A stretch of 64,000 nt of DNA. Source: Myxococcota bacterium (GTDB lineage Bacteria > Myxococcota_A > UBA9042 > PHBI01 > JAWLBL01). Under the pieces are notes generated by a model that ran no database searches, was not told the origin of the DNA, and was given only the letters and a program-made list of their open reading frames with translations. Position 1 is the stretch's first letter. Each line of letters starts with the position of its first letter. Location: NCBI GenBank assembly GCA_041687695.1, contig JAWLBL010000011.1, positions 32,001 through 96,000 of the forward strand, written 5' to 3'. The position numbers and the translations under genes were made by a program. Below are positions 17,041 to 60,449 of this stretch, piece after piece.

Positions 17041-17086
17041 GCGGCGCCGCCCCCGGCCACCCCTGTCGCGAAGAGGAGGACACGAC

Positions 17087-17470: not shown

Positions 17471-17557
17471 GGCGCGCGCCATCCGGGGCTGCGCTCGGGG
17501 GGCGCCTGGTCCGCCCCCCGGCGAGCCCGGTTGCGTCAGCGCCTCGTCCCCTTCGAC

Positions 17558-18955
17558 TCAGCGGCCGCTGGTGAACTGGAGCCCGCGCACGAGGACCCAG
17601 GGGGCGACGTGGCACGACTCGGTGCCGAAGCCGCCCGCGTGGCTCTCGACCGCGCGGCTCAGGCCCGCGCGGCCGGGGATGCGCGCGAAGGCCTCGAGGA
17701 TCGAGTCGGTGAAGCGCATCGGCTCGATGGCCCGCCCGAGGCGGCCGCCCTCGACCAGGAAGGCGCCGTCGCGGGTCAGCCCGGTCATGACGGCGCGCCG
17801 CGGCTCGATGAGGCCGTTGACGTAGTGCAGCCGCGTGATGAACAGGCCGCGGTCGACCTGGCCGAGCAGCCCCTCGAGGTCGGAGTCGCCGCCCGCCATG
17901 TGCAGGTGGCAGGCCTTGGACCCCGGCGCCGGGAACAGCGCGTCCGCGTGGGCGTGCCCGGTGGCGGCGCAGCCGGCGCGTCGCGCCGAGCGCGAGTCGT
18001 GGACCGAGCCGCGCGCGACGCCGTCCTCGACCAGGACCACGCGCTGCTTGGGCTGGCCCTCGGCGTCGAAGGGCAGCGGGAGGCCGATGGCGTGGGGCAT
18101 GGCGCCGTCGTCGTGGAGCGAGACGGCGGCCCCGGTCACGGCGCTCCCGACGTTGCCCGTGAGGAAGCTGCTGCCGTCCTCGACGGCCCGCGACGAGAAG
18201 CCGATCTCGCCCAACCACTCGAGGAGCTCGGCGACGGCGGCCGGCGACAGCACCACGTCCCAGGCGCCCGGCCGGACCGCGACCGGGTCGCGCCCGCGGC
18301 GGCACTCGGCGCGCACCTCGGCCTCGAGCGCGGCCACGCGCTCGGCGTCGACGCGGGCGTCGAAGTGGGCGCGCCAGGCGCTGGCCCGGTGGCCGACCGG
18401 GCGCTCGAGCGCGCTGAGGGCCAGATCGGCGTAGCTGCCCTGGTGCCAGGTGGCGACGCCCTCGGTCGATCGCACGGCCAGGCTGAAGCGCCCCGAATGG
18501 AACCGGCCGGCCAACGCCAGGTCGTCGGCCTCGGCAGCGCGCAGCGCCGGCTCGAGCCAGCGCGTCTTGGTGGCCGTGTCCAGCGTGGCCGTCACCGGGT
18601 CCATGGACCACGCGGGCGCGGCCGGGACGGCGGCGGCCGAGGGGAGGGTGATGGGCTCACGGCCCTGCGGGGTGACGCGGGCGTTCCGGATGGCCTGCGC
18701 GACCGCCCCTGCGAGGCCCTCGGCCGACAGATCGCTCGTCGTCCAGACCGCCGCGGCCCCGTCCACGACGGCGCGCACCGTCACCTGCCCCTGCACGACG
18801 TCCGAGGCCTGCACGACGCGCGCCTCGGCCAGCCGCATCAGGTTGGCCTCGCGCCCGCGGAACAGCAGCTCGACCCCGTCGGCCTGGCCACGGGCGGCCG
18901 CGAGGGCCTCGTCGAGGCGCTCCTCGACCCGATGGCGCGCGAACTCCGTCGTCAT
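17558..18955 (-). CDS. pmbA: TldE/PmbA family protein (non-catalytic partner of TldD)
   Basis: PGAWDVVLSPAAV, PFDAEGQP, ATGHA, TGLTRDGAFLVEGG; no HExxxH; ATGA-coupled to tldD. Confidence 0.85.
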   Translation of the reverse strand: MTTEFARHRVEERLDEALAAARGQADGVELLFRGREANLMRLAEARVVQASDVVQGQVTVRAVVDGAAAVWTTSDLSAEGLAGAVAQAIRNARVTPQGREPITLPSAAAVPAAPAWSMDPVTATLDTATKTRWLEPALRAAEADDLALAGRFHSGRFSLAVRSTEGVATWHQGSYADLALSALERPVGHRASAWRAHFDARVDAERVAALEAEVRAECRRGRDPVAVRPGAWDVVLSPAAVAELLEWLGEIGFSSRAVEDGSSFLTGNVGSAVTGAAVSLHDDGAMPHAIGLPLPFDAEGQPKQRVVLVEDGVARGSVHDSRSARRAGCAATGHAHADALFPAPGSKACHLHMAGGDSDLEGLLGQVDRGLFITRLHYVNGLIEPRRAVMTGLTRDGAFLVEGGRLGRAIEPMRFTDSILEAFARIPGRAGLSRAVESHAGGFGTESCHVAPWVLVRGLQFTSGR

Positions 18956-20424
18956 CGCGAGCTCCGGACCGGCACGCCCTCGAACCGCGCCGGCGCGCAC
19001 CCGTGGCCCACCGACATGATCTGCATGGGGTCACCCTTGCCGCAGTACATCCAGCCCCACATCCGCCAGGCCTCGGGGCCCGCGACGCCCGAGCACGCCT
19101 TCCAGAAGCGCGGCGTCACGTCCGCGTAGACCGGGTTCTTGTACAGCTTGCCCGTCAGCCGGCCGCCCTTGACCTCGTAGGCGGCCTCGCAGCTGAACTG
19201 GAAGTTCAAGCGTAGGTCGTCGATGGACCAGCTCTTGTTGACGCTCAGCATCAGGCCGTCGTCGACGCCGCCCAGCAGCTCGTCCAGCGAGCCGGTCCCA
19301 GGCTCGAGGTTGACGTTGATCATCCGGACGACCGGCTGGCTCCACCAGCTCTCGGCGCGCAAGCAGCCCGCCGACGGGCGGTCCACCGCGGCCGCCGAGT
19401 CGCGTCCCGACAGGAACCCCACGAAGCGCCCGCGATCGACCAGCGGCGTGCGCGTCGCCGGCGTGCCTTCGTCGTCGAAACCGAACGTCCCCGGACCCAG
19501 GGGCGAGGTCGCGTCGGCGGTCAGCGAGACGTGCTCGGAGCCGTACGTGAGCCGGTCCATCGCCTCGGGCAACAGGAAGCTGGCCCCCGCCAGGCTGATC
19601 TCCTCGCCCAGCACCCGGTCCAGCTCGGTCGGGTGGCCGACCGACTCGTGGATCTGCAGCGACAGCTGCGCCCCGTCGAGCACCACCGTCGTCGCGCCCG
19701 CGGGCGTCGGCTCGGCGCGCGTCAGCGCCACCGCCTCGGCGGCCAGCCGCCCCGCCTCACCCGGCAGATCCATCGCGCGCACCTGCTCGAAGCCGCCCTG
19801 CAGGACGTTGCCCTCGTGGCTCTTGGGCGCCGAGCGCACCTGCACGTCGCCGTCGTCGCCCACCGCCAGCGCCGCGAGCCCCGCGCCGCTCAAGGTCACG
19901 CGCTGGTCGACGGCGCTGCCGTTGGACGCCCGGAACAGCGTCCCCGTCCGCTGCGCGACGAGGCTCCCCTTGGCCGCCTTGACCCCGGCGGTCGCCAGGA
20001 TGCGGGCGTGCGCGTCGCCCATGAGCGCGACCTTCTCGGCGAGGGCCACCTCGAACGGATCCTCGGTCAGCGGCGTCTCGTAGCGCCCCATGACCGGCGC
20101 CGGTAGCTCGACCCGCTGCCGCGCCGACCGGGCGGTAGCGCGCGCAGCCTCGACGGCGGCTCGCGCCGCACGCGTCACCCCGTCCGGATCGAGCAGGTTC
20201 GTCGCGCCGTAACCCCAGCCGTCTCCGACCAGCGCCCGCACGCCCAGGCCCACGTCGTCCGTCGTCGCCGCCAGCTCGAGCCGCGCGTCGCGCAGCTCCA
20301 GGCTCTCGCGGCGCCGCTCGACCAGCCGCACCTCGGCATAGCGGGCCCCCGCCGCCAGCGCCGCCTCGATGGCCCGCGCGCACAGCGCCTCGAAGCGGTC
20401 GGCCGAACCCGGCGCCCCGCTCAG
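18952..20424 (-). CDS. tldD: TldD family metalloprotease
   Basis: HESVGHPTELD, FDDEGTP, CGKGDP...VGHG. The frame stays open upstream of GTG 20331 through GARYAEVR to a CTG at 20424 preceded by AAGGA; start inferred. Confidence 0.9.
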   Translation of the reverse strand: MSGAPGSADRFEALCARAIEAALAAGARYAEVRLVERRRESLELRDARLELAATTDDVGLGVRALVGDGWGYGATNLLDPDGVTRAARAAVEAARATARSARQRVELPAPVMGRYETPLTEDPFEVALAEKVALMGDAHARILATAGVKAAKGSLVAQRTGTLFRASNGSAVDQRVTLSGAGLAALAVGDDGDVQVRSAPKSHEGNVLQGGFEQVRAMDLPGEAGRLAAEAVALTRAEPTPAGATTVVLDGAQLSLQIHESVGHPTELDRVLGEEISLAGASFLLPEAMDRLTYGSEHVSLTADATSPLGPGTFGFDDEGTPATRTPLVDRGRFVGFLSGRDSAAAVDRPSAGCLRAESWWSQPVVRMINVNLEPGTGSLDELLGGVDDGLMLSVNKSWSIDDLRLNFQFSCEAAYEVKGGRLTGKLYKNPVYADVTPRFWKACSGVAGPEAWRMWGWMYCGKGDPMQIMSVGHGCAPARFEGVPVRSSR

Positions 20425-21500
20425 GGGGTGTCCTTGGGCTTGACCAGGCTGCGGAACAGGCCCGGCAGGTCGATGTTCAACATCACCTTCACCGGCTCCT
20501 CGCCGGCCGGCTGCGCGCCGGGCTCGGCGCCCTCGGCCTTGGCCTCGCCTCCAGCCGCGGCCGCGCCCTCCGCCGGCGTCTCGCCCTCGCTCCGCGCCTC
20601 GGCCTCACCGGAGGCCGCGGTCGGGACGTCGACCTCCTTGGGGATGAAGGCGCTCGCCAGCGCGCCGAACATCGACGCAAGCAGCTTGGGGCCGTGCTCC
20701 TTGATGAACTCGTTGTCGAGCTGCACCGTCGCCTGGCCCTTCTGACCCGGCTCGACCACGTTGCGCAGCAGGTACTCGTTCACGGCGCCCTTCAGGTTCG
20801 TCTTCAGCCGCGACTCGAGCTCGCCCACCTTGGCCCGCGCCTGCTCCTTCTTCTGACGCACCGCGCCCAGGTCGACCACGTTGTCCGAGTCGTCGCCGCC
20901 CGCCTCACCGGCGGCCGTCGTCGGCACCTTGAGCCCCTCGGGGAAGCGCGAGGCCACGGCCGAGAACAGGTTGGTCACCAGATCCTTGGCGCCGGACTGG
21001 ATGCGGTCGATCTGCACCGACTTCAGGTCCACCTGCCCGTCGGGCCCCAGCTCGACCCCGAGCTTCTCGTTGAGCACCTTGGACGCCGAGGCCCGGATGG
21101 CCGCCGCGATGTCCTCCGGCGAGTGCGCCTGAGCCTCGGCCTCGGCCTCGGGTCCCGGTTTGGGCTTCGCCTCGGCCTTGGGCTTCGCACCCGCTTCGGC
21201 CTTCGCCTCGGCCTTGGGCTTCGCACCCGCTTCGGCCTTCGCCTCGGCCTTGGGCTTCGCCTCGGCCTTGGGCTTCGCACCCGCTTCGGCCTTCGCCGCG
21301 GCCTTGGGCTTCGCCTCCGCCTTGGGCTTTGCCTCGGCCTTGGGCTTCGCCGCTGCCTTGGGGGTGCCCTTGGCCGGCGCGTCGCCCGACTTGGCCCCAC
21401 CGCCAGCCGCCTTCGCCTTCGAGCCGGCCGCCGCCTTCGTGGTCTTCTTCGCGTCGCCCGCCGACCGGGTGGTCGGGGTCTTCTGATCGTCCTTCGCCAT
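20421..21500 (-). CDS. Hypothetical protein with histone-H1-like (AKPKAE)n N-terminus and a duplicated C-terminal domain
   Basis: GGAG RBS, ATG 21500; about nine AKPKA(E/A) units; acidic Gly/Ala linkers; two similar helical segments each ending in VPT. Confidence 0.75.
   Translation of the reverse strand: MAKDDQKTPTTRSAGDAKKTTKAAAGSKAKAAGGGAKSGDAPAKGTPKAAAKPKAEAKPKAEAKPKAAAKAEAGAKPKAEAKPKAEAKAEAGAKPKAEAKAEAGAKPKAEAKPKPGPEAEAEAQAHSPEDIAAAIRASASKVLNEKLGVELGPDGQVDLKSVQIDRIQSGAKDLVTNLFSAVASRFPEGLKVPTTAAGEAGGDDSDNVVDLGAVRQKKEQARAKVGELESRLKTNLKGAVNEYLLRNVVEPGQKGQATVQLDNEFIKEHGPKLLASMFGALASAFIPKEVDVPTAASGEAEARSEGETPAEGAAAAGGEAKAEGAEPGAQPAGEEPVKVMLNIDLPGLFRSLVKPKDTP
21140..21362 (-). repeat. Coding tandem repeats (18-bp GCCAAGCCCAAGGCCGAG-like units) encoding AKPKAE
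   Basis: Repeated ggcttcgcctcggccttg / ggcttcgcacccgcttcggccttc on the + strand. Confidence 0.9.
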
Positions 21501-21649
21501 GGTCTGCTCCCGCTCGAAAGGTGCCGGGACACTAACCGAAGCGGCGCGGGCTTGCATCCCGCGGGCGCTCGGTCCCGGATGGTGTGCGTAGGGGAGGGCG
21601 GCGCGAGCCCTCACAGGGAGGGCCGCGCCGCGCGGCTCGTCGTCAGGCC

Positions 21650-24600
21650 CTACCAGCTGATGCCGTTGTTCCGGAACAGCTGGCGCGCCCGGTCGTCCTC
21701 GCGGCCGTCGACGGCGCGCAGGATGCGGTTGGGCCCGCCCGCGTGGGTGACGACCCGTCCGATGTCACCGGCGCGCGCCGAGTGCTCCAGTACGGTGATG
21801 ATGCACTCCTGGTCGGCCTCGCCGCACCAGCCCTTGATCATCTCGTCGATCATCTTGCCGCGCATCTCGGGGACGGCGTGGCGGTGGTCACCGCGCCGCA
21901 CGGCCGCGCGCATCTGGTCGTCGGCGCCGAAGAAGGCGCTGAGCAGACCCGGGCGCGGGCCGCTGAAGAAGCCCTTGATGCTGCTCCACCAGTCCGGCAT
22001 GTACGGCTCGATGAGCTCGAGGATCGTCGCCGCGGCCCGCAGGAACGCCTGGATGTCGCGCTTGATGCCGTCGAAGCTGATGTCGCCGCAGATCACCTTC
22101 CAGATGATGTAGATGAGGACGCCCGCCGGGCCGTAGGTCAGGCCGACCCGGACGATGTCGGTCAGCAGCCGGATGAGGCGGAAGGCCGCGCCCACGCCCT
22201 CGGCGATGATCTTGATGCGGTCGATGTGCTGCTGCAGCTGCCCCAGCGGGTTCTCGCGGTTGCCACCCTGCTGGGCCTGCTGCGACATCTGCTGGCCGCT
22301 CTCGAGCTGCGGTCCGTCCTGCACGTTGTTCGCCGCGCTCGAGGCCTCGGGCACGATGTTGCGCGCCGACGACTCGCTCGTGCGGGCCTCGGCGTTGCGC
22401 GTCGCCGGCGGGAAGGCCGGGCGCTGAGCGGCCGCGCGCGGCTCGGCCGAGGCCGGGTCGTCGCCGAACTTGTAGGTCTTGCCCCACTCGAAGCGGAACA
22501 GCTCGCCCAGCGGCTTGTGCCACTCCGTCAGGTTGTGGCGGAACTCGCGGCCGAGCGTGGCCTGCAGGTACGGCCGCGCGTACAGATCCAGCGTCGGGGC
22601 CAGCGTCACGCCGACGCCCAGCTCGCCGGAGTACTTGCCGGCGCGGCCGCGCAGGACGCCGTAGGGCTGCACCCGCACCGGCGCGTTCAGCCGGACCTCA
22701 CCTTCGATGCCGACGCCGGCGTTCAGCCCCGGCACGCCGACCGACAGGCCCGCGTACGCCATGACCGCGGCCTGCGCGTTCAGCCCCCAGTTGAGCTGCA
22801 GCAGCGCCTCGAAGTCCGGGATGTTGCCGCGCAGCGGCCGGAAGTTCGACACGCCGATGGTGGTCGAGAACGTCAGCGCCTCCATCCCGAGGCCCATGCC
22901 CGCGGCGATGCCGAGGTCGAGGTTGACGCCCGGGAACAGGACGATCGACTGCTTGGGCAGCAGATCGAACTTGGTGCTGAACAGATCCCGCGCCTGGACC
23001 AGCGGGACCTGCGAGACCGAGAGCGAGCCGCTGAGCACCGGGTCCAGGGTCTGATCGACCTCGACGCCCAGGGTGCCGCTGATCATGCGGTTGATCGCGT
23101 AGTCGACCGTGCCCGCGATGCGGAAGGTGTTGTCCTCGTTGTAGGTCGCCGAGACCCGGCCGCCGATCCGGCGCCCGGTGCGCGGGTCGTTGAGCAGCGT
23201 GAAGTCCAGCGTGCCGCTGCCCGAGTAGATGTCGCGCGTCCCGTCGTTGCGCCAGTTCAGGTTGAACGTGCCGCGCATGTTGTTGAGCGGCGGGATGACG
23301 ATGGCGCCCGACCCGCCGGCCGAGACCAGGCGGTTGTTCTCGACGCGCGCGCGGCCCGACAGGCGCTCGACCCGGACGTTGCCGCCCAGCAGCTCGAACG
23401 GCCGCATCATGGTCGCCGAGCCGTCGACGTACTCGAGCGTGTTGGTGACGGCGTTGTACATGCCGTCCGCGTTCAGCGAGATCAGCGGGCGGCCGTCGGT
23501 CCACAGCTCGCAGTTGAGCGTGCCGCCGAGGCGGCGCAGCTCGCTCTGGACCACCTCGCCGTTGCCGCCCGAGCCGCGCTTCAACTTGAGGACCGTGTTC
23601 GAGCCCAGCGTGTACTCGATGTCGCGGCCGAGGCGGATGTTGCCGTTGCCGTCGAACTTCTTGGTCTCGGCGTCGTAGGTGCCGTTGGCGGAGCCCGTCA
23701 GCAGCGGCTCGGCCTCGCCGTCCATGATCTTGAAGGGCACCGACCCGTCGACGCGGGTCAGCGCGTTGTTCTCGATGTGCGCCGTGGCGCCGGCGCCGAC
23801 CGCCAGCCAGAACTCGTAGCTGCCGATCTGCGCCAGGCGCTTGTCGCGCGTGATGCGCGCCTCGCCCGACCCGGTGAACCCGGTCCCGCCGGCCGCGTCG
23901 AAAGAGCCGCCCAGGCGCACGGTCAGGTACGCCCCCTGCTCGTCCTCGAGCCGCAGGTTGATCTGCCCGCCGACCGTCTGGAGGCTGTTGTTCAGCACCG
24001 ACGCGGTCGCGCCCGTGCCGCGGCAAAGGAACAGGTTCTGGCCGCCCAGGCTGGCCAGCTGCTTGTCACGCAGCACCTCGGCCGAGCCGTTGCCCGTGAA
24101 GTTGGCGCCCGGGAAGTCGTAGGTGGCCGTGGCCTCGATCTGCACGAAGGGGCCGGTCGCGTCGTCGATGCGCGCGTTGACCGTCCCGCCGATGGTCGTG
24201 ATGTCGCTGCTGACGAGGGTGATGTTCGCGCCCGTGCCCGGCAGGGCCTTGAGCGTGTACTCGCCGACCGTGGCGACCTGGTACTCCTGCAGCAGCGAGG
24301 CCGTGCCGGAGCCGTTGAAGCCTTCGGCCTCGGTGTAGCGGCCCTCGAGCGCGACGCGCGCGAACGGCCCCTGGGCGTTGTCGACCCGGACGTTCAACGT
24401 GCCGCTGAGCTCGTCGACGTTGTTGTTCGTGACCTCGATGTGGGCGCCGCTGGTCACCTCGAGCCAGGCGACGTAGCCGGCCGCGGTGGTCAGCATCTGC
24501 TTTTCGCGCGTGACCTGCAGCGTGGCGCTGGCGCGCGTGATCTGCCCGCCCTCCTGGTTCGAGTAGGTCGCGTCGCCGCTGGCCCGCAGGAACTCGCCCT

Positions 24601-27600
24601 GCGCGTCGTGGATGCCGACGTTGAGGGTGCCCGTCGCCTGGGTCAGCACGTTCTGCTCGACGGTGGCCGTCAGGCCCGTGCCCGGCTCGAGGTAGAACGA
24701 GTAGCCCTGCGCCCCGACGTTGTCGGCCACCAGGAACTGCCGCAGCAGCGTCGCCGAGCCCGAGCCCGAGAACATCTGGTCGGCGTGGGTGTAGGTGCCC
24801 TGCAGCTGGATGTCGATGAGGTCGAGGGCCTCGGGCGTCTTGATGAGCAGCGGGATGTTCGCGCTCAGCGAGTGCAGCTGCATGTCCTGGACGCTGATCT
24901 GGGCCCCGGCGCCCTCGTTCAGCCACAGCTGGTAGCCCTCGTAGCGCACGCCGAGGTCGATGGGCCGCACGGCCCGCGCCTCGCCCGTCACGTCGAGATC
25001 CGGCGTCGGGCCCGCCGTGTAGCGCCCGTTGACCGTGCACTCGATGGCCGGGCTCGTGCCCTCGTCGACGCGCACGTTGACCGTGCCCTCGACCCAGTCC
25101 AGCGCGCTCTGCGTGATCTTGAGCGACACGCCCGTGCCGCCTGTCAGCCAGAAGTGCCAGTTGCGGTCGCCGACCCCCTCGGGGGACATGTCGATGGCGC
25201 CCAGCAGCGTCACCGTGCCCTCGGCGTCGATGATGGCGTTCTGACCGTCCGCGACGTTGTACTCGGCCGAGAAGTCGCCCGTCGCGAACGCCTGCGCGTC
25301 CTTGTCGACCCGCAGCTTCAGCGTGCCGCCGAGGTGGACCAGCTGGCTCTCCTCGACCCGCGCGGTGCCGCCCGACCCGGTCGCCAGCCAGATGCTGTAG
25401 CCCTCGCCGGCCTCGGAGATCAGGATGTCGCCGACGACCTCGATCTGACCGGACGCGTTCAGGCCGCCGCCCGCGACGTAGCTGGTCTGCAGCGTGACGC
25501 GGACCTTCGGCTCCGTCGCCTCCTTGGCGATGAGGATGAAGGTGCCGTTGACCTCGGTGATGCGGCTCTGCGCCGCCGAGCCCGAGAAGTTCGTCCCCTC
25601 GCCGATGAAGGTGTGGAACCGGCCCGACTCCTCCCAGGCGATCTCGCGGATGACGTTGAACGTCACGTTGCCCGAGAAGCCCTCGGCGTCGCCGACCTTG
25701 TAGCGGCCGTTGACCGACCCGTTGGCGACCTCGTCGGCGTTGTGCAGGAGCTTGGCGCCGATGTCGATCTGCGCGTAATCGAACGCGTTCTCGGCCACCG
25801 AGACCCGCAGGCTCGCCCCCTGGCAGAAGACCAGGCTGTAGGACTCGAAGCGCCCGTTGGCCGCGTCGACGCCGCTCGCGGTCAGGACGTAGTCGCGGAC
25901 CAGGCTGAAGTCGCCCTCGCCGCTGAAGATGTTGTTGGTCGCCTCCCAGCGGCCCTCGACGGTGCCGGTCGCCAGCGGCTCGGCGCCCTGATCGAGGCGC
26001 AGGTTGATCTGCCCGGCGATCCACTGCAGCTCGTTGGCGCGGATCTCGCCCTGCGCGCCGGTGCCGCGGCAGATGAACGCCGTGTAGTCCTGCCCGAGGG
26101 CGGTCAGCCGGCGGTCGTTCAAGATCTCGGCGCTGCCCGTGCCGCTGAAGAGCTGGCCCGGGTAGTCGTAGCTGGCCTCGGCCTCGATCTTGAGGAAGTC
26201 GCCCTCTTCGTCGACCAGGCGCGCGTTGAGGGTCCCGCCGAAGCTCTGGATCTCGCTGCCGACCACGCCGACGCGCGCCGACGTGCTGGGGTCGACCCAG
26301 AGCGTGTAGCCCGCGAAGGTGCCGACCTCGATGGCCACGAGCAGCTCGGCCTCGCCCTCGCCCGTGAAGCCCTCGGCCGGGGTGTACGACCCGACGAGCT
26401 CGGCCGTGGCGAACGGCGCGCCGCCCTTGTCGACGCGGAGGTCGATGGTCCCGCCGACCCGGTCGAGCTGGTTGTTCGTGACGTGGAACAGCGAGTTCGA
26501 GCCCTGCGTGATGGTGAAGGCGTACTCGCCGGCCGTCGCCATCTGCTTGTCGCGCGTGAACTCGGCCGATCCCGTGATCGTCAGGTTGGCGGCCTCGCCC
26601 TCGCGGGCGTAGACGACCTCTCCGCGGGCCTCCACGAACTGCCCCTCGGCGTCGTGGACGCTGGCGATGAGGTTGCCGCGCAGCTCACGCAGGTCGTTGT
26701 CGGTGACGACCGCCGTGATGCCCGTCGACGGCTCGACGTAGTAGCTCCAGTTCAGCGGCGCGACGTTCTCGGCCACCGGCACGCGGCGCAGCAGGCTGGC
26801 CGTCCCCTGGCCGTTGAAGCGCTGGTCCGCGTGGGTGTAGGTGCCCTGCAGCTCGACCGCGACCAGGCCCCCCTGCGCGTCGTCGATGCGCATCGGGATG
26901 GTGGCGCCCAGCGAGTGCAGCGCCGACTGGCGCACGTCGATCTCGGCGCCCGCCCCCTCGACCACCTTCAGGCTGTAGCCGTTCCAGGCGACCAGCTCTT
27001 TTTCGCGCGTGACGGTGACCGTCCCGGTCCCCGTGAAGTCCCGCTGCGCGTGCGTGTAGCGGCCGTTCGCGTTGGCCGACAGGAACTCGCCGCTGGCGTC
27101 CTCGACCGACAGGTTCACGTTGCCGTCGATCCACTCGAGGTCGCTCTGCAGGACCGAGATGCCCACCTGCGTGCCGGGCAGCACGATGAAGCGGTACTCG
27201 GGGCTGCCCTCGGGCGTCACGTCCAGGCGGCCGAGCAGATCGACCTGGCCCGTGGCGTCGACGCGCGCGCTCTCGCCCTCGGAGACCTCGTAGGTCGCCG
27301 TGAAGTCGCCCGTCGCGAAGGTCTCCTCGTCCTTGTCCATCCGCAGCTTGATGGTGCCGCCCACCCGCTGCAGGGCGTTGGCCGCGATGACCGCCTCGCC
27401 CCCGGACGTCGCCGCCAGGAAGAGCTTGTACCCGGTCCCCACGTCCGAGATCAGGACGTCGTCGACCACCTCGACCACGCCGGTGCCGTTGACCCCGGCC
27501 TCGGGCGTGTAGTCGCAGGTGACGGTGACCTTGATCTTGTCGGTCTCCTGCTCCTTGAACAGCAGGATGAAGGTCCCGTTGGCCGAGGTGACCCGGCTCT

Positions 27601-30600
27601 GCTCCATCACGCCGGTGAAGGTCGTGCCCTGGTCGATGAAGGTCGCGAAGCGCCCCGACTCGTCCCAGGCGACCGGCGCGATGCAGGTCATCTGCACGGT
27701 GCCGCTGAAGCCCTCGGCGTCGCCCAAGCGGTAGTCGCCGTTGACCGACCCGTTGGCGACCTCCTCGTACTGGTGCAGCAGCTTGCCCTGCACGTTCACG
27801 TTGGCCGTGTCGAGGTTGTTGTCGGTCACCCGCACGGTGATGCCCGACCCCGCGGCGAAGACCAGGTGCCACGCCTCGATGCGCGTGCCGCCGCCCTCGG
27901 CCGTGTTGGCCTCGCCGCCGAAGACGAGATCCTGGGTCAGCGTGAAGGTCCCCTCGCCCGAGAAGCGGTCCTGGGTCATGTCCCAGGTGCCGTTCAGCAC
28001 GCCCCGCGCCTGCTCCTGTCCGTGCAGGTTCACGACCATGTTCAGGTCGGCGCCGACCTCGCTGAAGGCGTTGTTGGTCAGCGTCCCGTGGACGCCCGAG
28101 CCCTGCAGGACCTTGAGCTGCAGCGCCGGATCCTGCGGCTCGCCGTCCTGGGTCTGCGTCGCGCGCGGGTGGTCGAAGTCGCGCGCCGTCACGACGTTGA
28201 AGCTGCCCGAGAAGTCCCAGGTCGTCAGATCCAGGTTGGCGTCGGTGAGATCGCCCTCGAGCAGCGGCCCATCCACGTCGTGGATCTGGAAGCGGAGGTT
28301 GCCGCCGATGCGCGTCAGCGCGTTGTCGCTGACCGTGCAGCCGATGGTCGTGTCCGGCTGGACGACGAACTTCCAGCGGCCGTCCTCGGTCTGCCGCTCG
28401 ATGGCCTGCTTGAGGGTCAGCTCGCCCTCGAAGCTCACCGACCGGTTCTGCACGTCGTAGGTGCCGCCCTCGATGCTGCCCTCGAGGAACAGCGCGCCGG
28501 CGCGGTGGTACTCGGCGTGGACGGTCGTCGTCAGCGTGGTCAGCTGGCTGCCCGCCATGTCGCCGCGGACAGAGCTGTCCTCGAGCAGGATCAGCTGGTC
28601 GGCGCCGCCGTTGACGGGGATGGTCACGGCCTCTCGCAGGGTGCCCGACAGCGACCCGCCGAAAGCGCCCGTCTCGCCCGAGTACTGGCCGTTCAGCTCG
28701 CCCTGCAGCTTGACCGGGATCTCGCCGTCGATGTCGGCGTGGTACGGGATGGTCCCGTTCAGCGACGTCAGGCGGCTCTGCGTGATGGTCGCCTCGATGC
28801 TGCCGCCTTCCTTGAAGACGACGGTCCCCCACTCGGCCGTGATGGGCCACTCGGCCGCGACCTGCGCCGTCCCGGTCGCGTCCAGCATCCCGGTCTGGAA
28901 GTCCAGCGTCCCGCCGAGCGTCCCCTCGACCCGGCCCATGGTGACGTCCGCGCCTTCGCCCTGGGCCGACGCCGGGTTGATGACCGTGAACTCGCAGTTG
29001 GTCAGCGTCGCCGTCTGCAGCGCGCTCTCGGCGATGGTGACCGTGATGGTCGCGCCTTCCTTGACGAACACCGGCCCGGCCGCCCGGTCGGGGTAGCCGT
29101 ACTCGGCCGTCAGCGTGAACGAGCCCTCGCCCGAGACCTGTCCCGTCTCGCCGTCGAAGTTGAACCCGACCGTGCCGGTGCCCACCTCGCCCGCCGGCTC
29201 GGCCACGGTGAAGGCCAGGCCGCTGTTGATGGCCGACACGCGGTTGTCGGTCAGCTGCGCCTCGGCCGACGCGCCCTCGGCCACCACCATGTGCAGCCCG
29301 GCCGCGTCGCCGAAGGTCAGCTGACGGGTCGTCGTGACGTTGCCCGTGCCGCTGATGAGGTTCTCGGGCACCCGCCAGACGCAGTCGGTGACCGTCACGT
29401 CGAAGGTCGGCTGGCCCTCGTAGGGCACCTCGGCCCGCGCGTGGGTCAGGGCGACCTGCGTCAGGACGTTCGCCTCGAGGACCGCCTCGCCGCGCGCCTC
29501 CTTCAAGACGGCGCCGCTGTCGCCCAGCGGCAGCTCCTGCCGCAGGGTGGCCTCGCCGCGGGCGCTCAGCAGCTGCTGCTGCACGTCGTAGGTCCCGCTG
29601 ACGGTCCCCTCGACCAGCGGGTGGGTGAGCCGCGCGCTGGCCCCGACCTCGGTCAGCTCGCCGTTTTCGATGGCCAGCGTCAGCTGCCCCTCGGTCAGCG
29701 TCACGTCCTCGTAGGTCAGCGGCGCGATCTGGTTCAGGGTCCCGCGCGCGCTCCACGTGCCCGTCCGGTGCGTGTAGCTGGCGTCGATGGTGGCCGACGC
29801 CCAGTCGCGCACGGTCACGGTCAGGCTGCCGGTCGTCGTGAAACCGTCCTCGGCGCTGTACTCGCCCGTCAACGTCCCCGACGACAGGGTCACGCCCTCG
29901 AACAGGGTGACCGGCTCGGCCATGGCGACCGTCACCGTCCCGCCGAACGCCCCGTCCGCGAACCGCGCCGAGAAGGTGACCGTCCCCAGGTGCTCGACCG
30001 CGCCCACCAGCTCGCCCGACGCGCTGATCGCGCCGTCTTGCGCCAGCGCGACCGTCAGCGACCCGCTGGTCAGCGTCAGGCCCGGCATCAGCGTGACCTG
30101 ATCGTGCGTCAGCGTCGCCGTGCCGGTGACACCCTCGCTGCCCAGGGTCAGGTCGATGGTCCCGCTCAGCGCCGAGCCCAGCTGCAGCTGCGCGCCGGTG
30201 ATGGTCGTCGTGATCTCGGCGTCGGCGTTCACCTCGAGCTGGACGTCGTCCATCCGGATGTGCTCGCCGATGGCCACCGCCCCCTTGAGCGTGCCGGTCT
30301 GCAGCGCCCACTGCTCGTCGAACGTGACCTCGGCCTCGGTGATGGTCACGCCCGTCAGCAACGTCAGGTTCAGCTCGCGGACCGTGATGCGTCCGTTGGT
30401 CTCTTCGGCGTCGCTCGGCAGCCGCAGCTCGATCCGGCGCCCGGCCAGCGTCAGATCCAGCTTGGTCGGCCGCGCCGCCCCCGGCTCGGTCCCCTCCGCC
30501 GGCGCCTGCTCCTGCGCGGTGGCGGCGTCCGTGTCGGCGGCGATGTTCATCGCCGGCAGGACCTGCGTCGGGCGCGAGATGCCGTGGCCCGCGGCGAAGT

Positions 30601-31303
30601 CGGCGCCCAGGCGCGCGGCCTCGAGCTCGGCGCCGGCCTTCGACGGCGCGGCGGCGCCGGGGCTGACCTGGGCCTCCTGGCGCTGCGCCAGGTGGACGAC
30701 CTCGTGGCCCAGCAGGGCGCGGCCCTCGCGCGTGTCGGGGTCGTAGGCGGTCGGGTGCAGGTAGACCGTGCCGTCGTCCATCAGGCCGTGGGCGCCACGC
30801 GCCTCGGTGCGGCGGGCGGCCTCGGCGTCGGCGCGGACGCGGACGGCGCCCACGTCCAAGCCCAGCGCAGCGGCCAGTCGCTCGAGCAGCTGCGCCGTGC
30901 GCTCGGCGCGGCGGGCGTCCAGATCGATGACGTTGGAGGCGCGCTCGGCCGACTCGCGCTCGGCCACCATGCGGTAGAAGTCGGCGGTCAGCTCGGCGGC
31001 GATCTCGGCCGCCGACGGGCCGCGCAGCGACGGCGCGAACGCCTCGTCGGCGAACTCCTGGCCGGCGACCTCCACGACCGCGCGGTAGATCGCCTCCTTG
31101 TCCGCCCCGGTCACCAGCCCGTGGGCCTCGAGATCGGCCACCCAGAAGCCGATCTGCTCGGGCGCGTGCGCGAAGTCGTGGACCATCTCCGCGAGCTGCG
31201 CCATCAGGAGCTCGCGGCGCTGCTCGCGCTCCGTCTCGAGGGCGAGCTGGCGCTCGCGTTCGGCGTGGAGCAGGTCCAGGCGATCTCTGAGCTCGGTCTT
31301 CAT
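21650..31303 (-). CDS. Giant (3217 aa) DUF4157 / eCIS-core-domain protein with long beta-rich repeat region and hydrophobic C-terminal domain
   Basis: AVRVRADAEAARRTEARGAHGL...VYLHPTAYDPDTREGRALLGHEVVHLAQ...ELEA is a DUF4157 signature; coding-type codon bias; no signal peptide seen. Confidence 0.85.
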   Translation of the reverse strand: MKTELRDRLDLLHAERERQLALETEREQRRELLMAQLAEMVHDFAHAPEQIGFWVADLEAHGLVTGADKEAIYRAVVEVAGQEFADEAFAPSLRGPSAAEIAAELTADFYRMVAERESAERASNVIDLDARRAERTAQLLERLAAALGLDVGAVRVRADAEAARRTEARGAHGLMDDGTVYLHPTAYDPDTREGRALLGHEVVHLAQRQEAQVSPGAAAPSKAGAELEAARLGADFAAGHGISRPTQVLPAMNIAADTDAATAQEQAPAEGTEPGAARPTKLDLTLAGRRIELRLPSDAEETNGRITVRELNLTLLTGVTITEAEVTFDEQWALQTGTLKGAVAIGEHIRMDDVQLEVNADAEITTTITGAQLQLGSALSGTIDLTLGSEGVTGTATLTHDQVTLMPGLTLTSGSLTVALAQDGAISASGELVGAVEHLGTVTFSARFADGAFGGTVTVAMAEPVTLFEGVTLSSGTLTGEYSAEDGFTTTGSLTVTVRDWASATIDASYTHRTGTWSARGTLNQIAPLTYEDVTLTEGQLTLAIENGELTEVGASARLTHPLVEGTVSGTYDVQQQLLSARGEATLRQELPLGDSGAVLKEARGEAVLEANVLTQVALTHARAEVPYEGQPTFDVTVTDCVWRVPENLISGTGNVTTTRQLTFGDAAGLHMVVAEGASAEAQLTDNRVSAINSGLAFTVAEPAGEVGTGTVGFNFDGETGQVSGEGSFTLTAEYGYPDRAAGPVFVKEGATITVTIAESALQTATLTNCEFTVINPASAQGEGADVTMGRVEGTLGGTLDFQTGMLDATGTAQVAAEWPITAEWGTVVFKEGGSIEATITQSRLTSLNGTIPYHADIDGEIPVKLQGELNGQYSGETGAFGGSLSGTLREAVTIPVNGGADQLILLEDSSVRGDMAGSQLTTLTTTVHAEYHRAGALFLEGSIEGGTYDVQNRSVSFEGELTLKQAIERQTEDGRWKFVVQPDTTIGCTVSDNALTRIGGNLRFQIHDVDGPLLEGDLTDANLDLTTWDFSGSFNVVTARDFDHPRATQTQDGEPQDPALQLKVLQGSGVHGTLTNNAFSEVGADLNMVVNLHGQEQARGVLNGTWDMTQDRFSGEGTFTLTQDLVFGGEANTAEGGGTRIEAWHLVFAAGSGITVRVTDNNLDTANVNVQGKLLHQYEEVANGSVNGDYRLGDAEGFSGTVQMTCIAPVAWDESGRFATFIDQGTTFTGVMEQSRVTSANGTFILLFKEQETDKIKVTVTCDYTPEAGVNGTGVVEVVDDVLISDVGTGYKLFLAATSGGEAVIAANALQRVGGTIKLRMDKDEETFATGDFTATYEVSEGESARVDATGQVDLLGRLDVTPEGSPEYRFIVLPGTQVGISVLQSDLEWIDGNVNLSVEDASGEFLSANANGRYTHAQRDFTGTGTVTVTREKELVAWNGYSLKVVEGAGAEIDVRQSALHSLGATIPMRIDDAQGGLVAVELQGTYTHADQRFNGQGTASLLRRVPVAENVAPLNWSYYVEPSTGITAVVTDNDLRELRGNLIASVHDAEGQFVEARGEVVYAREGEAANLTITGSAEFTRDKQMATAGEYAFTITQGSNSLFHVTNNQLDRVGGTIDLRVDKGGAPFATAELVGSYTPAEGFTGEGEAELLVAIEVGTFAGYTLWVDPSTSARVGVVGSEIQSFGGTLNARLVDEEGDFLKIEAEASYDYPGQLFSGTGSAEILNDRRLTALGQDYTAFICRGTGAQGEIRANELQWIAGQINLRLDQGAEPLATGTVEGRWEATNNIFSGEGDFSLVRDYVLTASGVDAANGRFESYSLVFCQGASLRVSVAENAFDYAQIDIGAKLLHNADEVANGSVNGRYKVGDAEGFSGNVTFNVIREIAWEESGRFHTFIGEGTNFSGSAAQSRITEVNGTFILIAKEATEPKVRVTLQTSYVAGGGLNASGQIEVVGDILISEAGEGYSIWLATGSGGTARVEESQLVHLGGTLKLRVDKDAQAFATGDFSAEYNVADGQNAIIDAEGTVTLLGAIDMSPEGVGDRNWHFWLTGGTGVSLKITQSALDWVEGTVNVRVDEGTSPAIECTVNGRYTAGPTPDLDVTGEARAVRPIDLGVRYEGYQLWLNEGAGAQISVQDMQLHSLSANIPLLIKTPEALDLIDIQLQGTYTHADQMFSGSGSATLLRQFLVADNVGAQGYSFYLEPGTGLTATVEQNVLTQATGTLNVGIHDAQGEFLRASGDATYSNQEGGQITRASATLQVTREKQMLTTAAGYVAWLEVTSGAHIEVTNNNVDELSGTLNVRVDNAQGPFARVALEGRYTEAEGFNGSGTASLLQEYQVATVGEYTLKALPGTGANITLVSSDITTIGGTVNARIDDATGPFVQIEATATYDFPGANFTGNGSAEVLRDKQLASLGGQNLFLCRGTGATASVLNNSLQTVGGQINLRLEDEQGAYLTVRLGGSFDAAGGTGFTGSGEARITRDKRLAQIGSYEFWLAVGAGATAHIENNALTRVDGSVPFKIMDGEAEPLLTGSANGTYDAETKKFDGNGNIRLGRDIEYTLGSNTVLKLKRGSGGNGEVVQSELRRLGGTLNCELWTDGRPLISLNADGMYNAVTNTLEYVDGSATMMRPFELLGGNVRVERLSGRARVENNRLVSAGGSGAIVIPPLNNMRGTFNLNWRNDGTRDIYSGSGTLDFTLLNDPRTGRRIGGRVSATYNEDNTFRIAGTVDYAINRMISGTLGVEVDQTLDPVLSGSLSVSQVPLVQARDLFSTKFDLLPKQSIVLFPGVNLDLGIAAGMGLGMEALTFSTTIGVSNFRPLRGNIPDFEALLQLNWGLNAQAAVMAYAGLSVGVPGLNAGVGIEGEVRLNAPVRVQPYGVLRGRAGKYSGELGVGVTLAPTLDLYARPYLQATLGREFRHNLTEWHKPLGELFRFEWGKTYKFGDDPASAEPRAAAQRPAFPPATRNAEARTSESSARNIVPEASSAANNVQDGPQLESGQQMSQQAQQGGNRENPLGQLQQHIDRIKIIAEGVGAAFRLIRLLTDIVRVGLTYGPAGVLIYIIWKVICGDISFDGIKRDIQAFLRAAATILELIEPYMPDWWSSIKGFFSGPRPGLLSAFFGADDQMRAAVRRGDHRHAVPEMRGKMIDEMIKGWCGEADQECIITVLEHSARAGDIGRVVTHAGGPNRILRAVDGREDDRARQLFRNNGISW

Positions 31304-31531
31304 GGCAACCTCGCGCTCGGTGCGGGCTCTCCGCGGGACGACCGGCGACCCAAGTGGGGACGGCCGACCCCACCTGAGACTCCAGTCTCCAGTTGTCCTC
31401 GGCCCGGCGCTGGGTTCGCCGGGCCGCGTCGCGTCGGGCTGATCCCCCGATCACGACCCTGGCGCCGCCGGCCCGCTGGGGTCTGGCGACGCTCGCGCCG
31501 GCCTCTGGGAGCCGGCGCGGGAGGGAACGAG

Positions 31532-31546
31532 GCAAGCTTCGTTCCA
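31532..31546 (-). promoter_or_regulatory. sigma54 (-24/-12) promoter candidate upstream of the giant DUF4157 gene
   Basis: Minus strand TGGAACGAAGCTTGC = GG-N10-GC, one mismatch to TGGCACG-N4-TTGC, correctly oriented. Confidence 0.6.
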
Positions 31547-31629
31547 GATCGTTTTCCGGGCCGGATGGTCACCCGAGATCGGGCCGGAACACAAGGCGAC
31601 CGGGACGCGAAGGGGTAGGGCGGTGTTCG

Positions 31630-31835
31630 AGGCCGTGGCCGGATCCGTGGCCGAGGCCGGGTCCGTGGCCGTGGCCGGGTCCGTCGCCGTGGCCGTGGCC
31701 GTGGTCGTGGCCGTGGCCGTGGCCGGGTCCGTGGCCGGGTCCGTCGCCGTGGCCGTGGCCGGATCCGTGGCCGGATCCGTGGCCGAGGCCGTGGCCGGAT
31801 CCGTGGCCGTGGTCCGTGGCGGAGGCCGTGGCCGC
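31630..31835. repeat. Intergenic degenerate hexamer tract (CCGTGG/CCGGAT/CCGAGG/CCGGGT)
   Basis: More than 30 phased hexamers immediately downstream of the AAA gene stop. Confidence 0.9.
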
Positions 31836-31850
31836 GTTGAGGGCCGAGCC

Positions 31851-33992
31851 TCAGCCCACCCCAGGCCGGGCGTTCGAGCGGTCCTCGCCCTCCTCGAAGT
31901 GGACCTCGGTGCCGGCCATGGTGTTGGTGACGGGCGGCTTGTAGTTGGGGTCGCGGGTGACCTTGCCGGCGGCCTTGTACTCGTCGCGGCAGGCGTCGAG
32001 GAGGATGGCCTGGGTGATCTCGTCGCCGTCCTCGCAGGCCCAGTAGGCCGCGCGCAGCAGGGCGTTCTTGATCATGCCGCCCGTCATCTCGAAGCGCTTG
32101 GCGATGGCGCCGAAGTCGACGTCGCCCGCGAGGGGCGCCTCGGGCGGGCACAGGGTCTCCCAGATGAGGCGGCGCTGGTCGACGTCGGGCTCCTCGAAGG
32201 TGACGCGGAACTGGATGCGGCGGATGAGGGCGCGGTCGAGGGAGCCATAGAAGTTTGTGGTCAGGATGACGATGCCGGGGAAGCGCTCGATCTCCTGCAG
32301 CAGCAGGTTCACTTCCATGTTGGCGTAGCGGTCGGTCGCGCTCTTCGTCTCGGCCGAGCGGGCGGCGAAGAGCGAGTCGGCCTCGTCGAACAGCAGCATC
32401 GCGTGGCTGATGCGCGCCTGCTGAAAGATCTGCTTGATGTGCTTTTCCGTCTCGCCCACCCACTTCGAGACGACCTCGGGCAGGTTCACGCGGTACAGCG
32501 GGCGGTCGAACTCGCCGGCGATGATCTCGGCGCAGAAGGTCTTGCCGGTACCCGGCGGGCCGTCGAACAGGCAGGTGATGCCCTTGCCGGTCACGAGTTT
32601 TTTGCCGAAGCCCCACTTGTTGAGGACCGTCGCCTGGTTGCGGATGGCGGCGATGATCTCGCCGACCTTCTTCTGCGCGTCGTCGGGCAGCACGATGTCG
32701 CGCAGCCGCATGTGCGTCGTCGTGCGGACCGTCAGGTCCTCGAGCGCGTAGCGCAGCTGCGAGCGGCAGCCCTCGTCGAGCAGCGCCATCGTGAGTTGGG
32801 GCTTCTTGGGGTTGCGCGCCAGCGCTCGGTTGACCGCCACCAGGATGGCGTTCTTGATGGTGCCGCCCGGGAAGTCGTAGATGTTGGCCAGCACGTCCAG
32901 ATCGATGTCGGTCGACAGCGGCACCTCGGGCGGCAGGTGCACCTCCCAGATCTGCCGGCGCAGCGCCGCGTCGGGCAGCTCGAACGGCAGGTGGTAGATG
33001 ATGCGCCGCTCGAGCGCGTCGTCGAGCAGATCCGGGTGGTTGGTCGTCAGGACGCAGATGCCCTGGAAGTCCTCGATGGCCTTGAACGCCGCCGCCTTGC
33101 GCTTGTCGTGCTTGGCCACCAGGGCCTCGCACTCGTCGATGAGCACGACCGCGTCGCGCATGGACGCCTCGTTGAAGACGTCGCGCAAGGTCCCGTCGAC
33201 GTTGTCCTTTTCGGGCAGGTCGGCGGCCGAAAGGAAGAGCAGCGGCCGCTTGAGGTGCGCCGCCAGCGCCTGCGCCAGCAGGGTCTTGCCCGTGCCGCTC
33301 GGCCCGGAGAACAGGAACGTCAGCCCGCGCCCGTAGGGCAGCACCTGGTCGAACCCCCAGTCGCTGATGACCTCGCGATACCGGGTGTGCTGCTCGACCA
33401 GCTCGCGCACCTGCCGCAGCTGCTCGGCCGGCAGGATGACGTTCAGCAGCGACACGCCGGGCCGCTCGAGCCGCGCCAGCTTGCTGACGGTCTCGCCCAG
33501 CTCGTCCTCGCCCAGCACGAAGCGCAGGGTGGGGGGCGTAATCTCGAGATAGCGCGCCAGCAAGGCGTCCGGCGCTCCCAGCTCGGTCCGCGACAGGCTG
33601 ATGAGCTGGTTCTTCACCAGCCGCGACGACGGCAAGAACGCCTTGCGCGCGTTCATCCGCTCGGCCGCGGTCCGGCAGAACTGGTCGACGACCACGCGGA
33701 CCGTGACGCTGCGCGAGAACATCTCGCGCCCGAGCCGCGCCAGGATCTGCGACATCTTCGGCTCGGTGTGGCACGCCGTGGCGAGCATCAGGCACTTGAG
33801 CTCGAACCCGTCCAGCCGGAAGCGCTTCGCCAGCTGCGCCAGCGGGATCTCGCTCGCGCGCAGCCGCGCCTCGAACGCCTCCCAGCGCGCGCGCGCGCCC
33901 TCCACCGGGGCGTCACCGTTCGCGCTCAACCACTCGCCCATGGCCGAGACCCCCTCGCAGAGGATCTCCTGGTTCAAGCTGCTCGCGTCCAT
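31851..33992 (-). CDS. Afp15/Pvc15-like AAA+ ATPase with two ATPase domains
   Basis: N-terminal LAKRFRLDGFELKCLMLA; D1 GPSGTGKT / VLIDECE; D2 GPPGTGKT / VVSKWVGETEK / LLFDEADSLF / DRYANMEVNLLLQEIE / ILTTN. Confidence 0.85.
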   Translation of the reverse strand: MDASSLNQEILCEGVSAMGEWLSANGDAPVEGARARWEAFEARLRASEIPLAQLAKRFRLDGFELKCLMLATACHTEPKMSQILARLGREMFSRSVTVRVVVDQFCRTAAERMNARKAFLPSSRLVKNQLISLSRTELGAPDALLARYLEITPPTLRFVLGEDELGETVSKLARLERPGVSLLNVILPAEQLRQVRELVEQHTRYREVISDWGFDQVLPYGRGLTFLFSGPSGTGKTLLAQALAAHLKRPLLFLSAADLPEKDNVDGTLRDVFNEASMRDAVVLIDECEALVAKHDKRKAAAFKAIEDFQGICVLTTNHPDLLDDALERRIIYHLPFELPDAALRRQIWEVHLPPEVPLSTDIDLDVLANIYDFPGGTIKNAILVAVNRALARNPKKPQLTMALLDEGCRSQLRYALEDLTVRTTTHMRLRDIVLPDDAQKKVGEIIAAIRNQATVLNKWGFGKKLVTGKGITCLFDGPPGTGKTFCAEIIAGEFDRPLYRVNLPEVVSKWVGETEKHIKQIFQQARISHAMLLFDEADSLFAARSAETKSATDRYANMEVNLLLQEIERFPGIVILTTNFYGSLDRALIRRIQFRVTFEEPDVDQRRLIWETLCPPEAPLAGDVDFGAIAKRFEMTGGMIKNALLRAAYWACEDGDEITQAILLDACRDEYKAAGKVTRDPNYKPPVTNTMAGTEVHFEEGEDRSNARPGVG

Positions 33993-34122
33993 GCCACCGC
34001 CCGAAGCCACCCGCACGTCGTCCCACGCCAGTCGCGCGCCCCCTCGGACCCGCCCGGCGCCGCGTATCCTCTCCCGGCCGCCGACCCGGCGCAAGGTGGG
34101 CGCCGACGCGGCCCTCGCCGCG

Positions 34123-48892: not shown

Positions 48893-48895
48893 CCG

Positions 48896-56197: not shown

Positions 56198-57583
<1,386 letters not shown>

Positions 57584-60440: not shown

Positions 60441-60449
60441 GAGCCCATC

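Follow-up and report, generated by a model that had tools for sequence, protein, structure and literature searches.

An AAA+ ATPase gene of the contractile injection system type beside a giant DUF4157 gene in a Myxococcota genome: a candidate dispersed cargo module

Proteins carrying the DUF4157 domain are a mark of toxins associated with extracellular contractile injection systems (eCIS) and can show linkers of more than 1000 amino acids (aa), as given in the accessible text of two surveys (PMC8213781; PMC11297309). According to the accessible text of the second, 88% of the known eCIS cargo and toxins of the DUF4157 type are encoded within about ten genes of an eCIS operon. The AlgoCIS cargo is described, in the available part of the report, as having the layout N-terminal domain (NTD)-DUF4157-C-terminal domain (CTD), with the AAA+ protein Alg15 mediating the loading (bioRxiv 10.64898/2026.05.27.728243). 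DUF4157 proteins of Halogeometricum borinquense that are encoded off the cluster are, as stated in the accessible portion of the paper, secreted in a sheath-dependent manner, and the toxic ones are neutralised by a downstream gene (PMC11566945). Described here is a five-gene locus in a 64,000-nucleotide (nt) stretch of a Myxococcota bacterium genome (assembly GCA_041687695.1, contig JAWLBL010000011.1, positions 32,001 to 96,000), the whole of which is referred to as the window. The locus carries a gene for an AAA+ ATPase and a gene for a giant DUF4157 protein and is probably an orphan, dispersed loader-plus-giant-cargo module of an eCIS encoded on another contig.

An initial annotation of the window, made from the sequence alone, had termed the locus a candidate undescribed system. 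This is too strong, as N-terminal DUF4157 cargo, an AAA+ loader, cargo genes situated far off and protective downstream partners are already published, in so far as the accessible portions of four reports describe them (PMC8213781, PMC11297309, PMC11566945, bioRxiv 10.64898/2026.05.27.728243). The locus is best read as a known weapon in dispersed arrangement, not as an entirely new system. Searches of the accessible literature outside subscription papers and supplements, the available text of PMC12210884 included, found no description of operon-detached ATPase-giant pairs, of the giant family or of the Kc-TldDE coupling reported below.

The minus strand carries five successive genes, and ORF (open reading frame) calls, translations and Pfam matches bear out the initial annotation on this point. 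They encode the AAA+ ATPase, the giant protein, a Lys-rich partner, a TldD-like protein and a TldE-like protein, in a window with a G+C content of about 72%. The membership of the gene cluster stands, but a tight coupling of the ATPase and giant genes does not, as a 547-bp spacer is situated between them. A long ORF at 31300-33795 was discarded as a wrong-frame artefact. NCBIfam equivalog cut-offs are reached by none of the five module proteins.

The ATPase gene (31851..34094, minus strand) encodes a contractile injection system (CIS)-type ATPase with an N-terminal winged-helix domain (WHD) and two AAA modules, as seen from the translation, Pfam, full-length matches and a tree. The ORF yields 747 aa from a TTG at 34094, or 713 aa from an ATG at 33992. 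The translation displays the Walker A sequences GPSGTGKT and GPPGTGKT, with a Walker B DE in both modules, and Pfam shows PF22977 (WHD) at aa 72-203 (E-value = 2.6e-28) and PF00004 twice. The same WHD+AAA+AAA architecture at about 730 aa is found in Alg15, Pvc15 and Afp15, the ATPases of the eCIS loading pairs whose cargo includes AlgoCIS Cgo1/Cgo2 and PVC Pnf/Pdp1. The nearest solved relatives are the general double-ring unfoldases VAT and Cdc48/p97, with a match to the D2 module only (E-values 1e-38 to 1e-32).

The top full-length matches to the ATPase in a plasmid collection are ATPases within CIS loci. The Nostoc pn3 match (33% identity, 84% coverage, E-value = 2e-102) is encoded by a gene adjoining both a gene for a 2074-aa DUF4157 protein and baseplate genes. 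The match on pHBOR03 of H. borinquense (30% identity, 86% coverage) is flanked by a DUF4157 gene on one side and by DUF4255, tube and sheath genes on the other. A Serratia match occupies position 15 of an Afp/PVC-like cluster, between the tape measure and Pvc16 genes. All three of these CIS-operon ATPases are WHD+AAA proteins of 726-728 aa, and the module ATPase gene adjoins a DUF4157 gene as do those of the Nostoc and Halogeometricum loci. A tree of D2 modules splits 14 WHD-type ATPases from four housekeeping AAA proteins of the same genome with a support of 85/90, and the three CIS-operon ATPases nest among the paralogs of this genome, nearest to the copy on contig C23; the grouping is of moderate weight because the outgroup branches are long. 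Architecture, full-length matches and tree alike identify the module ATPase as a genuine CIS ATPase of the Afp15/Pvc15 type. A grouping with housekeeping AAA proteins, raised in the initial annotation as a point to check, is not found; the D2 tree places the protein with the CIS-operon ATPases. Unlike the ATPases of the known loading pairs, it is not encoded inside a structural operon between the tape measure and tail terminator genes.

The gene that follows (21650..31303, minus strand) encodes a giant cargo-type protein of 3217 aa (340 kDa) consisting of an NTD, the DUF4157 domain, beta repeats and a conserved C-terminal region. The initial annotation had placed DUF4157 at about aa 140-240, and a hidden Markov model (HMM) search gives PF13699 (eCIS_core, formerly DUF4157) at aa 138-211 (30671..30892, minus strand; E-value = 2.9e-13, 50.2 bits where the cut-off is 22), and the genome scan scores it at 58.3 bits. 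The domain contains an HExxH motif (HEVVH, aa 200-204, H200 to H204) and can be aligned with the DUF4157 domain of the giant in the Nostoc eCIS operon. The layout is that of DUF4157 cargo, with the domain near the N-terminus (aa 138-211 of 3217) and the variable part C-terminal, comparable to the NTD-DUF4157-CTD order of the loading pairs. The N-terminus is charged and no hydrophobic signal-type stretch can be read from the sequence, in agreement with the annotated lack of a signal peptide. No sequence relative of aa 1-300 is found in PDB.

Beyond the DUF4157 domain the giant displays about 28 tandem all-beta units of about 75 aa (aa 540-2635; 23399..29686, minus strand), with weaker units on both sides. 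Self-comparison of the sequence gives the unit length, with offsets in multiples of about 75. It also shows a segmental duplication of about 680 aa, in which aa 1065-1920 and 1744-2600 share 44-46% identity at an offset of about 680. Of the 34 matches to an HMM of the unit, 28 fall between aa 540 and 2635 at E < 1e-5. The AlphaFold2 (AF2) model of aa 1201-1650, made with a 31-row alignment, is all-beta with six strands per unit (predicted local distance difference test score, pLDDT, 93.1; predicted template modelling score, pTM, 0.76).

The conserved C-terminal region (aa 2650-3217; 21653..23356, minus strand) is delimited by a family search and by AF2. The model (pLDDT 75) shows a long-stranded sheet, a disordered linker, hydrophobic helices and a terminal helical module of about 90 aa; this module recurs 6-9 times in other DUF4157 proteins. 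A search of 1.8 billion proteins gives 165 cluster representatives for the family formed by the C-terminal 568 aa. These lie nearly always at the end of proteins of 1700-5200 aa, and PF13699 is found in 12 of the 19 scanned. The 23 loci of this family in species genomes all come from metagenome-assembled genomes, most of them labelled Myxococcota or Deltaproteobacteria. The ESM Atlas gave no usable match for the C-terminal region. Long-linker DUF4157 toxins (Geller 2021, PMC8213781), as presented in the accessible text, are similar in having DUF4157 near the N-terminus followed by more than 1000 aa. However, the "linker" of the giant is an ordered series of about 30 beta-meander repeats (pLDDT 93), and its C-terminal part is a conserved family without a known toxin domain. 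The roughly 30 repeats of 75 aa and the conserved C-terminal region of 570 aa are new here.

Foldseek searches against pdb with the repeat and C-terminal models gave template modelling (TM) scores of 0.26 or less. In VIA wide searches, the repeat model reaches Z 11-13 at a root mean square deviation (rmsd) of 20-30 Å, a topological likeness to large barrels only, and the C-terminal sheet reaches Z 10-11, with generic beta-sheet or barrel likeness only. The matches of both models consist of porins, VDAC/Tom40, ushers, LptD and lipovitellin (Z 10-13, rmsd mostly 6-30 Å). The giant is not assigned to a fold family, the likeness being topological only and the rmsd very high.

The initial annotation stated that tail genes are lacking in these 64 kb, and this holds. 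Tail and CIS families show no match among the 34 flanking ORFs scanned across the window, and whole-genome scans for sheath and tube give no match on the contig of the module. The genome itself (G000; 99.3% complete, 63 contigs) shows 18 PF13699 matches, three sheath matches and four gp19-type tube matches in a Pfam scan. One eCIS structural locus is present, at 91-110 kb of contig C17. It contains Pvc16_N, sheath, tube, sheath, tube, CIS_tube+LysM, gp25, Baseplate_J, Tail_P2_I and FHA proteins, as well as a 1656-aa protein without a Pfam match. Neither AAA+ nor PF13699 is matched among the 23 scanned ORFs of this locus, and no ATPase homolog was found on C17. The third sheath match belongs to a Mu-like prophage. 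A TssC/VipB sheath (PF05943), which would point to delivery by a type VI secretion system, has no match in the genome. The giant gene is on a different contig from the eCIS locus and does not fall among the ten or so genes nearest the eCIS operon. Two lone gp19-type tube genes are situated among housekeeping genes far from the eCIS locus (L078:9693-10139 on C27 and L079:10055-10753 on C8), and each adjoins an AIR-synthase-related gene (PF00586/PF02769).

ATPase homologs are found at no fewer than eight further loci of this genome (at least eight, on C18, C5, C30, C3, C52, C23, C6 and C9; L044-L053). Pfam analysis of seven of these gives WHD+AAA in six, the seventh (C52) being truncated where its contig stops. 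At three of the nine ATPase loci (C11, C18, C5) the ATPase gene is directly before a giant DUF4157 gene. The module differs from the known eCIS loading pairs in these respects: it is off the contig of the structural operon, that operon has no ATPase gene, and the genome carries the further ATPase paralogs. Several ATPase paralogs are beside large proteins without Pfam matches, of 676 aa on C23 and of 1027 and 1064 aa on C6. One paralog adjoins a DUF2267 gene, a family also found just downstream of the module in the window.

The initial annotation had asked whether the core genes are linked in other genomes. ATPase orthologs (51-71% identity, E-value of 1e-200 or lower) are present in 19 of 40 relatives, and in 13 of these 19, with an ortholog identity of 64-71%, a PF13699 match lies no more than 3 kb downstream on the same strand, so the linkage is not refuted. 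In the remaining six the genes are rearranged (G004) or lie on different contigs of fragmented assemblies. In a phylum sample of 301 genomes, the giant C-terminal family (threshold E <= 1e-20) occurs in 25 and the gp19-type tube family in 146. A tube gene is present in 24 of the 25 genomes with the giant family, versus 122 of the 276 without it. Fisher's test gives p = 1.4e-7, a significance that is overstated because kin are not independent; counted by family, the co-occurrence is 10 of 11.

The interpretation as an eCIS cargo module is favoured because the C17 eCIS locus has neither ATPase nor DUF4157, the ATPase groups with those of CIS loci, and the giant and tube families co-occur. It corresponds to one of two alternatives in the initial annotation, an orphan effector-plus-loader cassette. 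The ATPase, a double-ring unfoldase of the Afp15/Pvc15/Alg15 kind, would engage the N-terminal region of the giant, unfold the protein and feed it into the tube of an eCIS particle, which would be built from the locus on the other contig that has no ATPase or DUF4157 gene of its own. Once ejected, the giant may act on its target through its C-terminal region, plausibly at a membrane. The gene that follows that of the giant, encoding the Lys-rich Kc protein in the window, would supply an accessory such as an immunity protein, a chaperone or a regulator. Where it occurs, TldD/E is coupled with the Kc gene, and its probable role is to trim or degrade the largely low-complexity Kc protein or another unfolded part. 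If this is correct, the eCIS of the lineage would be "distributed", with one loader-less structural operon and scattered loader-cargo pairs (at least nine ATPase loci and 18 DUF4157 genes), and operon-centred surveys of eCIS cargo would overlook most of the arsenal. It would also raise the questions of whether a 340-kDa all-beta protein is unfolded and packed in a tube, and whether cargo-specific ATPase paralogs choose the load. Both are relevant to engineering eCIS for protein delivery.

The Lys-rich partner gene (20421..21614, minus strand) reads 397 aa counted from 21614, with an ATG at 21500 as the likely start. The sequence consists of an (AKPKAE)n array and two copies of a Kc motif domain (aa 166-397). 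The array, claimed in the initial annotation, is found as a period-18 tandem repeat of 11.3 copies at 21160-21362. The protein matches no family in Pfam, and homologs are present in 16 of the 40 relatives. In most loci the gene directly 3' of the giant gene belongs to a conserved family without a Pfam match, in which a low-complexity linker joins an N-domain of about 250 aa to the C-terminal "Kc" motif. The partner in the window is reduced to the Lys-rich repeat and the two Kc copies, and a homolog of the N-domain is found elsewhere, on C7. In genus g6 the partner is split in two genes. In the giant-following partners of two loci (L069:11763-13613 and L074:8147-10003), a ParA/CbiA-like P-loop insert separates the N-domain from the Kc tail. 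In one genome a 966-aa protein is encoded between the giant and Kc genes (L084:7950-10847; G002, C178), and by eye this resembles a flavin-dependent oxidoreductase/halogenase fusion.

Encoding off the cluster and a conserved gene following the giant are both reminiscent of the DUF4157 effectors of H. borinquense (PMC11566945), as far as the accessible text describes them. Toxicity and its neutralisation are described there and are putative traits in the module, and the module's partner family (N-domain and Kc tail) has no Pfam family or detected similarity to the H. borinquense partners in what is accessible of that report. The downstream partner family is conserved and is new here. A word-based homolog search with the Kc domain gave nothing at E <= 1e-5. 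A complex prediction for the C-terminal 568 aa of the giant and the Kc domain, both entered as alignments, scored 0.00, a result that carries no weight either way.

TldD and TldE (PmbA) of E. coli take part in microcin B17 maturation and CcdA degradation. In the window, the divergent TldD-like metalloprotease (18952..20424, minus strand) displays the sequence HESVGH, and the divergent TldE/PmbA-like protein (17558..18955, minus strand) is without HExxxH. Pfam shows PmbA_TldD domains in both. The stop/start overlaps from the Lys-rich gene through tldD to tldE, noted in the initial annotation, are present. The ATG of tldE overlaps the tldD stop (ATGA at 18952-18955), and a probable CTG start of tldD overlaps the stop of the partner gene (CTGA at 20421-20424). 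This non-canonical CTG is the only in-frame start; the partner/tldD junction contains no ATG, GTG or TTG, and the TldD homology extends upstream of the first GTG. The junction reads GTGA in two relatives, so a CTG start or coupled re-initiation is likely in the window.

The pair is similar to E. coli TldD/TldE in the PmbA_TldD domains, in having HExxxH in the TldD-like member only and in the overlapping genes. It differs in being divergent and coupled to a gene with the Kc domain. NCBIfam equivalog scores of the pair are 27-100 bits against cut-offs of 438-635 for E. coli and archaeal TldD/PmbA, and a canonical TldD/PmbA pair is found on C49 of the same genome. As judged by sequence, the pair in the window is a second, divergent TldD/E pair. 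The presence of HExxxH in the TldD-like member alone indicates a heterodimer in which one subunit is active and the other inactive.

The initial annotation considered TldDE the weakest member of the locus. This stands in that a TldE ortholog is missing from 11 of the 19 genomes with an ATPase ortholog; orthologs occur in 12 of the 40 relatives, eight of which also carry the ATPase ortholog. With respect to the partner gene the picture is different. TldDE lies within 10 kb of the partner in all seven same-contig cases, across four families, and the Kc and tldD genes are start/stop coupled in three genomes (the window, G002 and G015). The distance is about 3.5 kb in G012 and G008 and about 8 kb in G005. 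In G002 the ATPase, giant, extra genes, Kc, tldD and tldE follow in this order on one strand. TldDE is tied to the Kc gene and is a lineage-limited accessory, not a core component.

A possible, though rather doubtful, view is that TldD/E and the Kc protein form a separate unit, mere neighbours with no functional connection to the giant. The genomes with an ATPase ortholog and no TldE ortholog are in line with this, as is G015, where the Kc-tldD-tldE trio is found on a contig without a giant. The same holds for genus g6, in which the partner is separated from TldDE by a Metallophos gene and two genes on the opposite strand, and for G001, where the pair is on the other strand at a distance of 9.5 kb. 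However, in a family alignment the gene immediately following the giant also ends in the Kc motif in at least eight loci without TldDE, which ties Kc to the giant on independent grounds, and the proximity of TldDE to the partner in the seven same-contig cases also argues against two unconnected units. A testable lead on the restraint or maturation of such cargo comes from the partner family and the way it is coupled with a second TldD/E pair.

A third type of TldD/PmbA-family protein, 600 aa in length, has its gene on C18 (L044:3001-4800 of G000), 2.3 kb upstream of the second ATPase-giant module and with parA-parB between. It was rejected as support for TldDE membership. The closeness is probably due to chance, because orthologs in relatives (G001, G005 and G008) are not near ATPase paralogs.

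Several observations weigh against the assignment of the module to an eCIS. Tube genes are found in 36 of the 41 relatives of the class, so near-universal that their co-occurrence with the giant is weak evidence at that range. The NTD of the giant (aa 1-137) appears, by eye from the sequence, to be charged and helical rather than plainly disordered. No known toxin domain is found in the giant by Pfam, NCBIfam, PADLOC or fold searches. Loading has been demonstrated for no cargo on the scale of 3217 aa; the accessible reports give 1228 aa (Cgo2) and about 1100 aa as the largest, and the giant is 2.6 times the larger of these. In the D2 tree the module ATPase branches together with its orthologs, apart from the canonical CIS-operon ATPases, to which the C23 paralog is closest, and the task of the module ATPase may have diverged. 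In one relative (G031; 91% complete, 310 contigs) an ATPase ortholog (66% identity), a giant and a Kc homolog are present, and tube and sheath were not found. Distant members of the giant family (L059, L063, L066, L069 and L076) have no ATPase gene directly upstream, and housekeeping genes are found there.

Some of these points would suit a tail-independent machine, the second alternative in the initial annotation, for which G031 is one weak point. The diverged ATPase, giant, Kc protein and TldDE would then be self-contained, with the giant, for example, threaded or assembled into or across the envelope and DUF4157 merely an inherited processing domain. The separate ATPase branch, the size of the giant, the presence of at least eight further ATPase loci per one eCIS locus, and models of the repeats and C-terminal sheet whose only likeness, one of topology, is to large membrane beta-barrels and lipid-binding sheets are all consistent with this. 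It is nevertheless unlikely. PF13699 and the WHD-AAA architecture are both CIS hallmarks, the tube gene accompanies the giant in the phylum sample (24 of 25 genomes versus 122 of 276), and G031 is an incomplete assembly in many contigs. The fold matches, at their very high rmsd, give no family membership, and the giant is without a signal peptide or lipobox. A more specific form, in which the unfoldase threads a protein of about 170 strands outward or into a membrane and TldDE clears a Kc escort, is no more probable. The curved sheets and hydrophobic C-terminal helices of the giant would there form the active structure, and the whole, if true, would be a new AAA-powered export or assembly machine descended from a CIS loader.

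It is likewise improbable that the giant is an effector leaving by lysis, vesicles or another path, with the ATPase acting as a chaperone, disaggregase or quality-control unfoldase for an aggregation-prone protein and the eCIS uninvolved. The general unfoldases among the nearest solved relatives of the ATPase would agree with such a role, as would the distant giant-family members without an adjoining ATPase and the two Hsp20 genes situated just downstream of the module. However, these Hsp20 genes are on the opposite strand and are not kept beside the module in relatives, and both the giant-tube co-occurrence and the CIS family membership of the ATPase speak for eCIS involvement. An anti-phage defence system around an IetA/IteA-like AAA+ ATPase is very hard to credit: PADLOC IetA models match the D2 module (E-value = 5e-49) and NCBIfam IteA gives 162 bits, but the IteA cut-off is 510, the matches are to a generic AAA module only, no IetS-type protease partner is found in the locus, and five other sequences scanned show no PADLOC match.

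The ATPase-giant spacer carries a period-12 tandem repeat of 16.8 copies (31633..31834, minus strand). The repeat is in the ATPase frame after the TGA and gives a His-Gly-rich reading with high third-position G+C and without a start codon of its own; no such repeat is found in the spacers of four relatives. It may represent an extension reached by read-through, the decayed remains of a C-terminal tail, or simply repetitive DNA. Also in the spacer is a perfect 9-bp inverted repeat at 31524-31545 (of the type GGAACGAGG...CTTCGTTCC), which has a terminator score on the plus strand only, where no gene ends.

A conserved block of about 37-45 nt with two small hairpins (31356..31392, minus strand) is found in the leader of the giant gene, 50-90 nt before the ATG. 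It is near-invariant in the window and four related loci (L055, L056, L057 and L070), with almost no covariation. The second hairpin reads GGGGTC...CCCC, and extended -10-like motifs (TGnTAGGAT) are present upstream of the block. This suggests that the giant gene has a conserved promoter or leader to itself. The block was also compared by eye with a sigma-54 promoter, a reading dropped because the -12 element misfits. Rfam gives no match for the block, or anywhere over 17000-35000, and a promoter and terminator scan of the locus gave no signal above shuffles.

The flanks of the module are housekeeping, as in the initial annotation, and consist of the two Hsp20 genes, DUF2267, a 2-hydroxyacid dehydrogenase and MscS. 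Two further segments (43153-49855 and 56201-63999) make up a type IV pilus neighbourhood unrelated to the module, with a pilus cluster at the far end of the window. Among their genes are those for DUF6178, a PMT_2-type glycosyltransferase-like protein of 1304 aa, a prepilin peptidase and a sigma-54 response regulator, as well as pilM, pilO and AMIN-domain genes.

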